From a virus (Duplodnaviria > Heunggongvirae > Uroviricota > Caudoviricetes), in IMG/VR virus record IMGVR_UViG_2778261177_000007, positions 1-17,398 of that record: DNA of 17,398 nucleotides; one strand, written 5' to 3'. The translations under genes were made by a program, and so were the position numbers. The notes under the pieces are model-generated. The model did no database searches. It worked only from the letters and a program-made list of their open reading frames with translations, and had not been told where the DNA came from. Numbering within the stretch: position 1 is the stretch's first letter; every line of letters starts with the position of its first letter. Shown here in pieces: positions 1 to 7,109 of this stretch.

Positions 1-1143
1 CTATGCTGTTTTGATATCTACGATAATCCAGTCTTTACCACGATCATCATTGTATCGGTCGGTCATTTTTCTGGATTTATGACCTAACAACTTTTGCGTA
101 TCCAGACCCTGTTCCCGATATAACCGTTCTGACAGAGATCGCTGCTCATGAAATGTGGGCGCAGTTCCTTGCTCCCATTTTATGCCACATTTTTCCCTGG
201 CCTTTTTAAAAGCCGTTGTCAGAGTATTCGCAGAAACCTGGTCTCCTCTGTTTGCTTGAGAGGTTGTGTGACGGTAATGGACCAGATATTTACTAACAAC
301 AGCATCCCTGCACTGAGATATAACTTCACGAAGGGTAATATTCAGAGCATCGCATTTCAGGTTAAGCGGAATAGCAAGTTTTGAACCGGTTTTTTCCTGA
401 GTAATGTGCAACATGTCGTCCCAGATATCAGAGAATTTCAAATTGCAGATATCGCCTAAACGTTGTCCAGTGACAAGAGCAAGTAGCATCCCGCATTTTA
501 AATAGGGCTGCCGTCTGCTTACGCTGTCAAATATTGCCTGCCATTCGGGCAGTGATAATCTTTGGCGGTTTACTCGATTTCGCGGTTGTTTTGTTGCCTG
601 CGCTGGGTTAAATCCTGGCGGAACATGTCCTGCGTGTTGTGCTTCTTTGAAGACGTCGATTAACACCATTCTCACGACTTGCGCCATCCTGTTATGACCT
701 TCAGCCTTTACAGCATCAATTATTTCGGCAATATCAAGTGCGGTAATATCCTTGAGGTGTTGCATTCCACAATGCTCACGGAAAAGACGAATGGGTTTGC
801 CTTTTTGCCGATAGGAGTTGGGTCTTAGTTCATTATGTTGCAGCCTGTCCTCCTGGATAGAAATATATTTATCAAGCCATTCTGTCACCGTAATGTCTGA
901 GCGCCTGCCTTTCATTCTTTCCAGACGCTCATTGACGCTTAATATTTGTCGGGTACGTTGTTCAGCAATAATGGTATTTGCTTCAGTAGCAACTTGTTTT
1001 GCTTCATTCTCATCAGTTCCTAAGCTATGAAAACGACCGGATAGTGGATGTTTGTATTGCCAATATACCTTTCCTGTTCGCTTATCTAATTTGCAATATA
1101 AATTGGGTATAGAGATTTTGTGAGATCGGGGTCTAGCAGCCAT
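1..1143 (-). CDS. int: Lambda-family tyrosine integrase (site-specific recombinase)
   Basis: 380-aa ORF with ATG start; N-terminal arm-binding-like region, C-terminal HxxR...LLGHK...Y catalytic signature (HEQRSLSERLY, LGHKSRKMTDRY). Overlaps upstream xis by 11 nt as in lambdoid phages. Not lambda Int itself. Stop codon sits at the window edge. Confidence 0.9.
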   Translation of the reverse strand: MAARPRSHKISIPNLYCKLDKRTGKVYWQYKHPLSGRFHSLGTDENEAKQVATEANTIIAEQRTRQILSVNERLERMKGRRSDITVTEWLDKYISIQEDRLQHNELRPNSYRQKGKPIRLFREHCGMQHLKDITALDIAEIIDAVKAEGHNRMAQVVRMVLIDVFKEAQHAGHVPPGFNPAQATKQPRNRVNRQRLSLPEWQAIFDSVSRRQPYLKCGMLLALVTGQRLGDICNLKFSDIWDDMLHITQEKTGSKLAIPLNLKCDALNITLREVISQCRDAVVSKYLVHYRHTTSQANRGDQVSANTLTTAFKKAREKCGIKWEQGTAPTFHEQRSLSERLYREQGLDTQKLLGHKSRKMTDRYNDDRGKDWIIVDIKTA

Positions 1144-2596: not shown

Positions 2597-2751
2597 ACCG
2601 CCTCCCGTTTATTATTTATCTTCTCAGCCAGCCGCTGTGCTTTCAGTGGATTTCTGATAACAGAAAGGCCGGGAAATACCCAGCCTCGCTTTGTAACGGA
2701 GTAGACGAAAGTGATCGCGCCTACCCGGATATTATCGTGAGGATGCGTCAT
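2569..2751 (-). CDS. Lambda orf60a-like small protein
   Basis: ORF in the position of lambda orf60a; starting at the third codon ([15 protein letters not shown]...) gives 60 aa and the 4-nt overlap with exo seen in lambda. The ORF track's longer version starts at 2757. Confidence 0.6.
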
Positions 2752-3428
2752 CGCCATTGCTCCCCAAATACAAAACCAATTTCAGCCAGTGCCTCGTCCA
2801 TTTTTTCGATGAACTCCGGCACCATCTCGTCAAAACTCGCCATGTACTTTTCATCCCGCTCAACCACGACATAATGCAGTCCTTCACGCTTCATACGCGG
2901 GTCATAGTTGGCAAAGTACCAGGCATCTTTTCGTGTCACCCACATGCTGTACTGCACCTGGGCCATGTAAGCCGACTTTATGGCCTCGAAACCACCGAGC
3001 CGGAACTTCATGAAATCCCGGGAGGTAAACGGGCATTTCAGCTCAAGGCCATTGCCGTCACTGCATAAACCATCCGGAGAGCAGGCGGTACGCATACTTT
3101 CGTCGCGATAGATGATCGGGGATTCAATAACATTCACGCCGGAAGTGAACTCAAACAGGGTTCTGGCGTCGTTCTCGTACTGTTTTCCCCAGGCCAGTGC
3201 TTTAGCGTTAACTTCCGGAGCCACACCGGTGCAAACCTCGGCAAGCAGGGTGTGGAAGTAGGACATTTTCATGTCAGGCCACTTCTTTCCGGAGCGGGGT
3301 TTTGCTATCACGTTGTGAACTTCTGAAGCGGTGATGACGCCGAGCCGTAATTTGTGCCACGCATCATCCCCCTGTTCGACAGCTCTCACATCGATCCCGG
3401 TACGCTGCAGGATAATGTCCGGTGTCAT
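2748..3428 (-). CDS. exo: Lambda exonuclease (Red-alpha)
   Basis: 226-aa product recognised by eye as near-identical to phage lambda Exo ([37 protein letters not shown]...); 4-nt overlap with bet as in lambda. Confidence 0.95.
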
Positions 3429-4210
3429 GCTGCCACCTTCTGCTCTGCGGCTTTCTGTTTCAGGAATCCAAGAGCTTTTACTGCTTCGGCCTGTGTCAGT
3501 TCTGACGATGCACGAATGTCGCGGCGAAATATCTGGGAACAGAGTGGCAATAAGTCGTCATCCCATGTTTTATCCAGGGCGATCAGCAGAGTGTTAATCT
3601 CCTGCATGGTTTCATCGTTAACCGGAGTGATGTCGCGTTCCGGCTGGCGTTCTGCAGTGTATGCAGTATTTTCGACAATGCGCTCGGCTTCATCCTTGTC
3701 ATAGATACCAGCAAATCCGAAGGCCAGACGGGAACACTGAATCATGGCTTTATGCCGTAACATTCGTTTGGGATGCGACTGCCACGGCCCCGTGATTTCT
3801 CTGCCTTCGCGAGTTTTGAATGGTTCGCGGCGGCATTCATCCATCCATTCGGTAACGCAGATCGGATGATTACGGTCCTTGCGGTAAATCCGGCATGTAC
3901 AGGATTCATTGTCCTGCTCAAAGTCCATGCCATCAAACTGCTGGTTTTCATTGATGATGCGGGACCAGCCATCAACGCCCACCACCGGAACGATGCCGTT
4001 CTGCTTATCAGGGAAGGCGTAAATTTCTTTCGTCCACGGATTAAGGCCGTACTGGTTGGCGACGATCAACAATGCGATGAACTGCGCATCGCTGGCATCA
4101 CCTTTAAATGCCGTCTGGCGAAGAGTGGTGATCAGTTCCTGTGGGTCGACAGAATCCATGCCGACACGTTCAGCCAGCTTCCCTGCCAGCGTTGCGAGTG
4201 CTGTACTCAT
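3425..4210 (-). CDS. bet: Lambda Bet (Red-beta) single-strand annealing protein
   Basis: 261-aa product recognised as near-identical to lambda Bet ([66 protein letters not shown]...). Confidence 0.95.
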
Positions 4211-4215
4211 CCGCT

Positions 4216-4512
4216 TTATACCTCTGAATCAATATCAACGTGGTGGTGAGCAATGGTTTCAACCATGTACCGGATGTGTTCTGCCATACGCTCCTGAAAC
4301 TCAACATCGTCATCAAATGCACGAGTAATGGCTTTTTTGCTGGCCCCGTGGCGTTGCAAATGATCGATGCAGAGTGATTCAAACAGGTGCTGTGGAAGAC
4401 CTTTTTCCATGTCGTCTGCCAGTTCTGCCTCTTTCTCTTCACGGGCGATCAGCTGGTAGTGACGTGCCCAGCTCTGAGCCTCAAGACGATCCTGAATGTA
4501 ATAAGCGTTCAT
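4216..4512 (-). CDS. gam: Gam, RecBCD inhibitor (short GamS form only)
   Basis: 98-aa product matching the C-terminal 98 residues of lambda Gam ([19 protein letters not shown]...VDIDSEV). The upstream long-form N-terminal coding sequence is present but out of frame and truncated. Confidence 0.9.
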
Positions 4513-4587
4513 GGCTGAACTCCTGAAAATGGCTGTGAAAATATCGCCCGCGAAATGCCAGGCTGATTAGGAAAACAGGAAAGGGGA

Positions 4588-4878
4588 TTAGTGATTCAGG
4601 CCGTTACCGCGTCCGTCGAGAAAAACTTCCACGAGCAAATCACGGGTATAAGTGCGCTCGATGCCGCGATGCAGATATAGCCGTCCGCGTAAATTAGCTG
4701 ATGCAGTCCAGGTACCATCTTTGTGTTTGACCAGCATTCCTGGCATGACCGCACCTCGATTAACGGTCTGCGTTCCGTAATGTTGATGAACCATAAAAAC
4801 TCCTGCCCGTAAGCTGGGCTGCTGAACATATAGAGACTTCTGCGCGTATTCAGGCGGTGGATGGCCGCCGGTTGTCAT
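4588..4878 (-). CDS. Hypothetical protein, first ORF downstream of the putative pL (in the N/kil/cIII position)
   Basis: 96-aa ORF with ATG start and a GAGG about 10 nt upstream. No recognisable family and no N-like arginine-rich motif. A competing 77-aa ORF (4596..4829) in another frame lacks an SD. Confidence 0.4.
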
Positions 4879-5049
4879 AACTAAGCCGCCTCGTTGAAGC
4901 GACTAAGGTATGAAATGTTGAGTTGATTTCAGCTGGTCACACCGACGTTCACGCGTCCGTTTCACCCCTCGCACTCCCCGAAGCCTGCTGAAATTCAAAC
5001 TGCGGATCTAAGCGGTCATCGCAACGGTGAATCAGGTAGTTGCCGTATC

Positions 5050-5130
5050 GTTGTGTTGTTGCGATGAACTTATTTAAAACTATAGTTGTTTTATCGTCAA
5101 CAACAAAAGTTGTTTTATTGGTTGTTTTAG
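5050..5130 (-). promoter_or_regulatory. Putative pL promoter with oL-like operator repeats
   Basis: On the minus strand: -35 TTGACG (rc of 5095..5100), 17-bp spacer, -10 TTAAAT (rc of 5072..5077). Embedded in GTTGTTTTA / CAACAAC repeats. A roughly 30-bp module (TTGTTGA..AAAACAAC.ATAGTTTTAA) is shared with the pR side. Confidence 0.45.
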
Positions 5131-5238
5131 ATATAACTGGTTGTATTTAGGATGGATTTATTTTGTGACTTGAATCGCATAGCGATAACTGAAGCGAGGT
5201 TATGGTGGTTTTTTTAACGGTGTGTGTGATGAGGGGAG

Positions 5239-5268
5239 GGCAAAAGAAAACCCGGCACGGTGACCGGG
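5239..5268 (-). terminator. Intrinsic terminator downstream of the repressor gene (tImm-like)
   Basis: Minus-strand RNA CCCGGUCACCGUGCCGGG forms a GC-rich stem and is followed by UUUUCUUUUG. Lies about 120 nt after the repressor stop, between the repressor and the pL/oL region. Confidence 0.65.
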
Positions 5269-5389
5269 ATTCTTACGCCGTTAGGTAAAGATATTATTGC
5301 GGTGGCTTAATATTACTACCTAGAGCAAAGATAGGAATTAGTTCTTTACTGAATGAGCACAATGCCCAGTTGATAATTTTTAATTGGTA

Positions 5390-6079
5390 CTACCCATGCT
5401 TCCTATATGTCTGCGGCATGCTCCCAATAACCTTACCGAAGATGAACACCCGGTTCATCTCGTCTTTCTCGATCGGGTCCCACGGTGAGTAGCTTTTGTT
5501 ATCAGAGATGACCAGCAGCTTATCCTTCATCATTTGCAGGCGCTTTACATGGGCTGTGTCGTCGTACAGAAACGCATAGATACCATCACCGTCGAAAGAT
5601 TTAACTGTGATATCAACGAACAGCAGATCACCTGGTTCGATCGTTCCTGACATGCTGTCACCACGCACGTTAATGATGCGGATATTTTCCGCCTTCCTAC
5701 CATCGAACATGTGACGAGCATCGTCAAACGAGTACTCAACCGAGCGTAGAACTTCTACAAACTCACGGTTGATGACTCCCGGCCCAGCACTGACTTCTAT
5801 ATCAAGAACGTCAATCTTGAAGTATTTGGAATGGCTGACAGTTGATTGTATTGGTTGCACTGTACTGTCTGACATATTTCCAACGCCAGAAGATAACCAT
5901 TCTGCGCGCACACCCAAAGCGTTCGCGATCTCCACGATTTTAGTTGTTTGATTAGCTTTCCCTGTTTCGATTTTCTGAATAGCAGCCTGGCTAACCCCGA
6001 CCAAATCCCCAAGCGCCTTTTGTGTAAGGCCTCGCGCTAATCTGGCTTCTTTAAGTCTTTCTGAGAGTGTTGTTTTCAT
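5390..6079 (-). CDS. cI-like phage repressor (N-terminal XRE-type HTH, C-terminal S24 LexA-like peptidase domain)
   Basis: HTH segment LTQKALGDLVGVSQAAIQKIETGK; Ala-Gly autocleavage-type site (VSAGPG); S24 motifs (VRGDSMSGTIEPGDLLFVD, ...HVKRL). Start set at the internal ATG 6079 (MKTTLSERL...); the 251-aa ORF-track version from 6145 would begin inside the operator palindrome. Confidence 0.85.
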   Translation of the reverse strand: MKTTLSERLKEARLARGLTQKALGDLVGVSQAAIQKIETGKANQTTKIVEIANALGVRAEWLSSGVGNMSDSTVQPIQSTVSHSKYFKIDVLDIEVSAGPGVINREFVEVLRSVEYSFDDARHMFDGRKAENIRIINVRGDSMSGTIEPGDLLFVDITVKSFDGDGIYAFLYDDTAHVKRLQMMKDKLLVISDNKSYSPWDPIEKDEMNRVFIFGKVIGSMPQTYRKHG

Positions 6080-6183
6080 AGTCCAAATGTACAACCAAGG
6101 TTTTATTTCATCAAACGAAAATGGTTGTTGATTAAAAACAACCATAGTTTTAATCTTGATTCAAATTAACCACGGAGGTTGTT
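6080..6183. promoter_or_regulatory. oR-like operator region with divergent pRM/pR promoters
   Basis: Perfect 8-bp-arm palindrome ATGGTTGT-N9-ACAACCAT at 6121..6145 and a second ACAACC..GGTTTT site at about 6093..6108. Putative pR: -35 TTGATT, -10 TTTAAT, then the GGAGG SD of the cro-like gene. Confidence 0.5.
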
Positions 6184-6414
6184 ATGAACCCAGCTATCAA
6201 AACAGCGATCAATATCGTTGGTTCACAAAAGAAACTGGGCGCTGCTTGCGAAGTTTCACAGCAGGCCGTCTATAAGTGGCTTCACAACAAAGCAAAGGTA
6301 TCCCCTGAACATGTCGGCAGCATTGTTACGGCTACTGGTGGAGTAGTGAAGGCATACCAGATTCGCCCGGATCTTCCGAAGTTGTTTCCACACACCGAAA
6401 AGAACGCAGCTTAA
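6184..6414 (+). CDS. Cro-like / YdaS-family HTH regulator
   Basis: 76-aa ORF divergent from the repressor, GGAGG SD 6 nt upstream of ATG, HTH-like segment (QKKLGAACEVSQQAVYKWLH); occupies the cro position. Confidence 0.8.
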   Translation: MNPAIKTAINIVGSQKKLGAACEVSQQAVYKWLHNKAKVSPEHVGSIVTATGGVVKAYQIRPDLPKLFPHTEKNAA

Positions 6415-6426
6415 ATTTCCATTTCA

Positions 6427-6439
6427 CGCTCTTTAACAA
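6427..6439 (+). promoter_or_regulatory. boxA-like antitermination element at the nutR position
   Basis: CGCTCTTTAACAA lies 13 nt after the cro-like stop; matches the rrn/lambdoid boxA consensus (TGCTCTTTAACAA) at 12 of 13 positions. No convincing boxB hairpin follows. Confidence 0.5.
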
Positions 6440-6483: not shown

Positions 6484-7023
6484 ATGCAACCACTTACATA
6501 CCAACAGACTAGCGGATTTAGCCCGACTGCGGTGATAAATCGTTCTCAAACAAAACAGGCGCCAGGCCACGAAAAAATCCGTGATGCCGTTCGCGCCTGG
6601 TCGGCTGCAGATAATCAGGATGTTGTTGCCGCACTCATTGTGAATGAGTATCGGGAGCAGGGCGGCGGCACCATCGATTTCCCTGATGATGTCAGCCGTG
6701 CACGCCAGAAGCTGTTCCGCTTCCTCGATAACAAATTCGATTCTGAAAAATACCGAAATAACGTGCGTGAACTGACCCCGGCAATTCTGGCGGTACTACC
6801 GCTGGAATATCGCGGCCACCTGGTTGAGCAGGATAGCTTCATGGCTCGGCTGGCTGAAATGGAAAAGGAACTCAGTGAGGCAAAACAGGCTGTCATTCTC
6901 AACGCACCACGCCACCAGAAACTGAAGGAGATGAGTGAAGGCATTGTGTCGATGTTTCGTGTGGACCCGGATCTGGCTGGTCCACTGATGGCGATGGTCA
7001 CCACCATGCTGGGGGCAATATGA
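6484..7023 (+). CDS. YdaT-family protein (cII-position regulator)
   Basis: 179-aa ORF with AAGGAG SD; motifs NEYREQGGG and LTPAILAVLPLEYRGHLV resemble Rac-prophage YdaT-family proteins (recall); sits in the cII position after cro. Confidence 0.65.
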   Translation: MQPLTYQQTSGFSPTAVINRSQTKQAPGHEKIRDAVRAWSAADNQDVVAALIVNEYREQGGGTIDFPDDVSRARQKLFRFLDNKFDSEKYRNNVRELTPAILAVLPLEYRGHLVEQDSFMARLAEMEKELSEAKQAVILNAPRHQKLKEMSEGIVSMFRVDPDLAGPLMAMVTTMLGAI

Positions 7024-7109
7024 CAGGTTCGGAAATGGCGAAAGCCGGTCTGCGCGAACAGAACCGACTTTCAGGTGCAAATCGTAACACACTCATTGCG
7101 GGAGGAATT

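Follow-up and report, generated by a model that had tools for sequence, protein, structure and literature searches.

At low dose, KilR of the Rac prophage (E. coli K-12, b1352, 73 aa) disrupts Z rings; at high dose it causes MreB to mislocalise (PMC12482147). Its toxicity is relieved by overproduction of FtsZ and not by overproduction of MreBCD (PMC12482147). KilR is still toxic in ftsA* delta-zipA cells, where lambda Kil is resisted; lambda Kil needs ZipA and KilR does not (PMC12482147). In the published KilR model, a beta core is flanked by tails of 7 and 12 residues. Of these, the C-terminal tail is essential, and toxicity falls progressively when it is truncated (PMC12482147). The reported target of lambda Kil (47 aa) is FtsZ, the same as reported for KilR (PMC12482147).

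The window analyzed here is the whole 17,398-nt stretch of a Caudoviricetes sequence (IMG/VR record IMGVR_UViG_2778261177_000007). An earlier reading made without database searches (the sequence-only reading) had pointed out a 96-aa ORF at 4588..4878 and named 4596..4829 as a competing frame. Both start with ATG and are present in the ORF listing, the longer one on the minus strand as described and the other, of 77 aa, overlapping it in a different frame. The longer one was said to belong to no recognisable family. We find instead that 4588..4794 is probably a kil gene of the KilR family, the first leftward gene in a lambda-like E. coli prophage of the Bievrevirus/DLP12-site type. The features of the window are collected in Table 1.

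The ORF matched PHROG 294 (“Kil protein for bacterial septation inhibition”) with an E value of 1.2e-38 over residues 20-96. The NCBIfam model NF008465/PRK11354 (“FtsZ inhibitor protein”, the KilR model, 73 positions) was matched at E 4.4e-17 and 61.9 bits, with ORF residues 29-96 aligned on profile positions 1-70. The curated cut-off for the Rac KilR subfamily is 92 bits; because the score falls below it, the window Kil is placed in a sister clade of Rac KilR, that is, in another subfamily of the same family. BLASTP against Rac KilR found 36% identity over 61 residues (E 9e-13), and Met29 of the 96-aa ORF aligned with Met1 of KilR. The sequence-only reading had itself named a strong match to a known family as grounds for giving up its view, and PHROG 294, the NCBIfam KilR model and Rac KilR all provide one. 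Residues 29-96 are also identical to RefSeq WP_000233576.1, named “phage encoded cell division inhibitor protein”. PGAP calls a 207-nt CDS for this protein in a RefSeq E. coli chromosome with 99.9% identity to the window over 4513-5389, and the translation of that CDS is exactly that of 4588..4794.

In a protein database search, we found 149 relatives of the 96-aa ORF, whose source names are often “cell division inhibitor protein”, “prophage Kil protein” or “phage Kil protein”. Of the 120 homologs listed, 110, including every full-length one, carry the precomputed Pfam tag PF27398; a Pfam-A copy that did not contain the PF27398 model gave no match for either frame (4588..4878 or 4596..4829). 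The family alignment keeps M1, HYGT, R13, PG, ASAN and LY. The phage relatives include HK225 Kil (85%), the phi80 “FtsZ inhibitor protein Kil” (41%), kilR of an Stx2a phage (36%) and HK639_41. An exhaustive profile search of 1.84 billion proteins yielded only 78 representatives at 50% identity, so the Kil family is small, mainly enterobacterial and phage-borne. A 5454-aa match in the deep search (P0145) was rejected as an artefact of nine identical repeats scoring 5.5 bits each. Among 5426 complete E. coli genomes, 3147 have the locus DNA. Judged by homology, the “unrecognised” ORF is thus an already named and common prophage gene, kil. The finding is ordinary, because the ORF is a well-known KilR-type kil, most likely of 68 aa. 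The sequence-only reading had left the function open, with host takeover among its options.

The surroundings are those of a lambdoid early region. The gene order is exo-bet-gam-kil, then pL/oL facing leftward, then cI and cro, which places kil in the early leftward operon of a lambdoid prophage. It adjoins gam on the upstream side, the slot that lambda kil occupies directly upstream of its own gam. The earlier placement of the ORF in the kil region is borne out by its position upstream of gam-bet-exo and by the lack of N, ral and cIII. The further suggestion that it replaces kil does not hold, since the ORF is kil itself. None of N, ral, sieB, ea10 and cIII was found within the window, and the approximately 500 nt between the kil ORF and the cI-like gene contain no credible gene.

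Table 1. Features of the window discussed in the text, ordered by position.
Feature	Coordinates	Strand	Basis or remark
int	1-1143	-	ORF list
exo	2748-3428	-	ORF list; annotated in near-identical phages and the RefSeq genome
bet	3425-4210	-	ORF list; annotated in near-identical phages and the RefSeq genome
gam	4216-4512	-	Next downstream of kil; ORF list; annotated in near-identical phages and the RefSeq genome
kil, KilR-type cell-division inhibitor, 68 aa (MVHQHYGT...GLNH)	4588..4794, stop included	-	Homology and substitutions
Upstream extension of the 96-aa ORF, in frame, 28 codons	4795..4878	-	Most likely untranslated leader
Shine-Dalgarno AGGAG	4800..4804	-	5 nt before ATG 4794-4792; read from the sequence
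Leader RNA element: CAUA/UAUG basal helix, hairpin 1, invariant 28-mer	4853..4912	-	
Hairpin 2 (GGCGG/CCGCC), held in the 28-mer	4853-4869	-	
Invariant 28-mer TTATGACAACCGGCGGCCATCCACCGCC	4853-4880	-	
Hairpin 1, 9 bp	4884-4904	-	
oL operator region, GTTGTT/AACAAC half-sites	5050..5124		19-mer likeness to the cI-cro intergenic region
Putative pL, TTGACG-17-TTAAAT	5072..5100	-	Our reading of the sequence; inferred
Terminator-like hairpin and T run, downstream of cI	5251-5268	-	Consensus scan
cI-like HTH/S24 repressor	5390-6079 or 5390-6145	-	
cro	6184-6414		
cII-like gene	6484-7023		
O	7020-8039		
P	8036-8737		
Inverse autotransporter, 1302 aa, intimin/invasin type, Big_1 repeats	8987-12895		
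Alpha/beta-hydrolase esterase	12932-13975	-	
Weak NinB-like fragment	14423-14827		
IS3-family transposase pair	16332-17398		

Rac KilR is homologous to the window Kil and is of similar size with a beta core and flexible tails, and its gene likewise precedes recombination genes in the early leftward operon of a lambdoid prophage. The window Kil is 5 residues shorter and has a different C-terminal tail. The neighbours differ as well, gam-bet-exo at the window kil and ydaE-racC-recET at Rac kilR. No sequence similar to the Rac kilR leader or to the KilS sRNA was found upstream of the window kil. The Kil proteins of phi80 (PHI80_42), HK225 and HK639 (HK639_41, 68 aa) belong to the same family as the window Kil, and these three phages share its leader element upstream in the pL operon. 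The phi80 kil gene lies downstream of N, nutL and tL1, and HK639 uses a put-like RNA, whereas N and a recognisable put are both missing from the window, where kil comes first after pL. Lambda Kil gave no BLASTP alignment to the window ORF at E values up to 100. Lambda Kil and KilR-type Kil are functional analogues from separate families. Phage D2 (L111, OM475427.1; 2852-2980 and 2688-2831) shows a recombinant junction between the two arrangements. A window-type leader with its Shine-Dalgarno sequence and kil ATG is joined there to a C-terminal segment of lambda cIII (RKLRDGWK...), and a lambda-type kil comes next. Since D2 carries lambda cIII'-kil at this place, KilR-type and lambda-type kil are interchangeable cassettes behind one leader.

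On the other side of the leftward control region, the cI-like ORF (5390-6145, minus strand) is 251 aa long from the first ATG, and RefSeq gives 229 aa (690 nt) for a near-identical gene. In its longer form the ORF would extend over the operator palindrome (6121-6145). To the right of P (8987-17398), cargo replaces or interrupts the expected nin/Q/late region. The prophage is possibly defective.

ORFs of 70 aa or more number 50 in the window, and many are shadows that overlap real genes; the length of the ORF alone is therefore not beyond chance. The case for a real gene rests on homology and on the pattern of substitutions, not on length. For the frame comparison we used 19 homologous loci from other genera of Enterobacteriaceae. 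Against these loci, the differences at codon positions 1/2/3 of the Kil frame number 176/153/721, and purifying selection thus acts in the Kil frame. The alternative that the 77-aa frame 4596..4829 is the real gene could appeal to its open ATG frame and to the GenBank record of PhiR34_1, which annotates this frame as a “hypothetical protein”. That frame has no PHROG, Pfam or NCBIfam match, the substitutions concentrate at the third positions of the other (4588) frame, and its equivalent is broken by 2 to 5 stops in all 19 other-genus loci. Because of these stops in every relative, 4596..4829 is not considered a gene; the alternative is extremely unlikely and can be regarded as refuted by computation. 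We also found 80 IMG/VR loci with the Kil protein, all 100% identical in protein, and excluded them as evidence. Because of this identity, their synonymous-only variation is a circular result. Four 95-aa database proteins (P0004, P0037, P0045 and P0050) start with MTTGG..., enter the 4596..4829 frame and, from TASAN on, are back in the Kil frame; this has the look of compensating frameshifts, due either to assembly errors or to pseudogenes.

The choice between the two frames, which the sequence-only reading had left to ribosome profiling, is settled computationally in favor of the 4588 frame, with the start at 4794 and not at 4878. The 96-aa ORF exists, as that reading held, and conservation is confined to its residues 29-96; the true gene, on this comparative evidence, is most likely 4588..4794, 68 aa from the ATG at 4794. 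For homologs of 67 to 68 aa, coverage of the 96-aa query is exactly 71%. In the alignments, the first 28 residues have either no counterpart or an unrelated one (e.g., in Enterobacter), and the shared start is MxxxHYGT. An ATG is found at the kil-start position in 21 of 22 other-genus loci, most of them with a purine-rich stretch just before it; in the remaining locus (L025) the start is a few codons earlier. The DNA upstream of kil in other genera falls into several groups, mostly unrelated to that of the window. In three IMG/VR contigs the same upstream ATG is present and kil begins at +82 (L159), +86 (L177) and +89 (L126), so that this ATG is out of frame. The Kil protein of L159 is identical to the window Kil, yet its upstream ATG is out of frame. 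In phage D2 the homology with the window leader ends exactly at the kil ATG and includes it. From the homolog starts, the frames in L159, L177 and L126 and the D2 junction, we infer that the 84-nt extension is leader and not part of Kil. Variation inside the extension amounts to 7 changes, 3 of them synonymous, too few to decide.

It is unlikely that the full 96-aa ORF is the product, an N-terminally extended Kil starting at ATG 4878. The frame from 4878 is open and its ATG is conserved throughout this E. coli lineage. Gene callers often output the 96-aa form (e.g., P0001 with 472 member sequences). An extended Kil could still work, because N-terminal mCherry-KilR fusions gave cell-shape defects like those of untagged KilR (PMC12482147). 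Against this reading, besides the missing extension in other genera and the frame shifts in the three contigs, the ORF from ATG 4878 varies among phages past “PPP” in sequence, length (16 to 200 aa) and frame, and the conserved block GCAGAAGTCTTGT falls in any of the three frames. ATG 4878 is engaged with CAUA in the basal helix of a conserved hairpin. The sole GAGG before it is 10 nt upstream and within the stem. The RefSeq gene has 68 aa.

The locus is annotated inconsistently in phage records. PhiR34_1, a near-identical phage with 99.4% identity to the window in this region, has the wrong frame, PhiR47_2 a “Kil” of 128 aa and Perceval a protein of 139 aa. Phages 1W, 3W and SEN34 label the locus “membrane carboxypeptidase”, and the leader ORF of D2 is annotated “prophage Kil protein” though it is without any Kil core. 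Lambda_4C10 and PhiR30_1 call the 68-aa form.

The ORF had been described as the first coding frame downstream of a putative pL, and among frames of appreciable size it does come first after a plausible pL/oL. An operator-like 19-mer (5074-5092) shows 95% complementarity to 6135-6153 next to cro; a second copy is found at 5102-5118. The match of the putative pL to the promoter consensus is weak, and a consensus scan found no minus-strand promoter there. The pL-side TTGACG...TTAAAT is homologous to the pR-side TTGATT...TAATCT at 6128-6156. The homologous promoter-like segments are TTGACGATAAAACAACTATAGTTTTAAAT on the pL side and TTGATTAAAAACAACCATAGTTTTAATCT on the pR side. GTTGTT/AACAAC operator-like repeats are common to the putative oL (5050-5124) and oR (6121-6153). 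The terminator-like hairpin downstream of cI (Table 1) is taken to close the cI transcript.

A search of the leader ORFs and of PHROG found no N-like gene between pL and kil. The 96-aa ORF has no arginine-rich N-type motif, as had been noted from the sequence, and its upstream extension has no PHROG match. It was rejected as an N-type antiterminator on the lack of that motif, and the leader is without likeness to phi80 N or nutL. A 31-aa ORF with a TTG start (MNFSRLRGVRGVKRTRERRCDQLKSTQHFIP, 4903-4998, minus strand) contains an arginine-rich RGVKRTRERR, reminiscent of the ARMs of N proteins. It lies in the frame of the 96-aa ORF, one TAG apart, and this codon is CAG in PhiR47_2. The 31-aa ORF is probably non-coding, since it has no PHROG match and no Shine-Dalgarno sequence. 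A put-like RNA was rejected as well; comparison of the early leader with HK639 putL scored 20, and shuffled sequences scored 16.3 +/- 2.3 with a maximum of 28. No similarity was found between the leader and HK022. On the plus strand between cro and the cII-like gene, CGCTCTTTAACAA (6427-6439) is what we take to be an almost exact match to the rrn/nut boxA consensus. No boxB-like hairpin was seen after it by eye, and a similar boxA was not evident in the leftward leader.

The leader contains a conserved structured element (Table 1), and the conserved block beyond it runs to approximately 4834. The first nine codons of the 96-aa ORF fall inside the element. Hairpin 1 shows compensatory changes in 7 of its 11 pairs, and 96.4% of the alignment cells are paired compared with 32 to 52% in slid controls. 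Frequent G-U pairs in this hairpin indicate that the kil-sense RNA is the folding strand. RNAalifold found both hairpins independently, together with a pairing of CAUA (4909-4912) to UAUG (4876-4879) that takes in the start codon of the 96-aa ORF (4876-4878). The segment 4853-4915 is conserved in HK225 (95%) and phi80 (84%), and also in HK639, Enterobacter phage ENT1 and Klebsiella phage KO-TP1. The leader element was found in at least 92 IMG/VR contigs, and scanning IMG/VR for its core turned up at least 120 stretches. The leader RNA is thus shared by many lambdoid phages, among them phi80, HK225, HK639 and Bievrevirus types. The order of the parts is the same in 57 distinct versions: a terminator (usually), CATACC, the 9-bp hairpin, the invariant 28-mer, a variable spacer and GCGCAGAAGTCT. 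An intrinsic terminator is usual before the element, and the window is without one. The element always follows the first leftward terminator (or put, or pL) and precedes the first delayed-early gene. In two IMG/VR contigs (L127 and L130), the sequence immediately before the element (cgggctcagggagagcggcaatgg...) is similar to a portion of the HK639 putL-like RNA, and the element can thus come straight after a put RNA instead of a terminator.

The codons for MTTGGHPPP are shared among the versions, and the few changes there are nonsynonymous (T3I, T3N, P9S, P9T and T2A). Since these changes are nonsynonymous, the ORF varies past MTTGGHPPP and the frames shift, conservation of the element is at the nucleotide level. 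The fold of the whole leader (4795-5045) has z = -0.18, with no global excess stability. An Rfam scan of 4300-6300 at E values up to 1 returned only a chance miRNA match, and a full-text literature search for the hairpin-2 sequence returned no paper. In the phi80 record M11919, a “t-L1 regulatory signal terminator” feature begins inside the element. In JX871397 (phi80), tL1A is just upstream of the element and the Rho-dependent tL1B approximately 140 nt downstream. The HK639 record labels hairpin 2 a terminator. We propose, as a tentative possibility, that the 5' end of the ORF is non-coding and forms part of an undescribed cis-acting leader RNA, which could gate kil and the recombination genes. 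It could do so by modulating Rho-dependent termination, a route suggested by the start of the phi80 tL1 region at the element. It could also encode a short regulatory uORF, with MTTGGHPPP as the sole conserved codons and a polyproline stall motif.

In the AF2 model of Kil (pLDDT 84.6), six strands lie within residues 8-59, and the tails are free. Kil is thus predicted to be a small six-stranded beta barrel with short flexible tails. The size of approximately 65 to 75 aa and the beta core with short unstructured tails are those of KilR-type proteins, and the layout agrees with the published KilR model. A PDB sequence search found no match for Kil, and the best BFVD match was an uncharacterised 73-aa Pantoea phage protein. 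The C-terminal tail is approximately 9 residues long, compared with 12 in KilR, and its sequence differs (GRGNGLNH). Position 65, a nearly invariant Pro in the family, is Gly in the window Kil. This shorter and different tail is the main uncertainty in transferring the KilR function.

The following course of events is proposed. Inactivation of the cI repressor would let pL fire, and the leftward transcript would run from pL/oL (approximately 5050-5124) through a leader of approximately 270 nt into kil, gam, bet and exo. Kil would be translated first and early from this transcript, most likely from ATG 4794 behind AGGAG and not from the upstream in-frame ATG 4878. By analogy with Rac KilR, Kil would block FtsZ-ring assembly, and at high dose it possibly blocks MreB-dependent elongation too. 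With ring assembly blocked, the host would stop dividing transiently and the cells would filament while the phage replicates during lytic growth. It is improbable that this KilR homolog has a main role other than FtsZ, be it MreB and elongation, superinfection exclusion or another host target. KilR does have a second activity on MreB, its C-terminal tail, which differs in the window Kil, tunes its activities, and the predicted fold, a generic SH3-like barrel, is not diagnostic of any partner. The family core (HYGT, R13, PG, ASAN and LY) is conserved, however, the operon slot is that of lambda kil, phi80 kil and Rac kilR, and nothing in the evidence points to another target.

FtsZ is accordingly kept as the presumed target of the window Kil. 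As a common and already known gene, the ORF itself matters little. The practical use of the analysis is that the gene limits are fixed at 68 aa and the inconsistent public annotation is exposed. Follow-up may be worthwhile only for the structured leader, which would bear on how phages without N time their toxic early genes.
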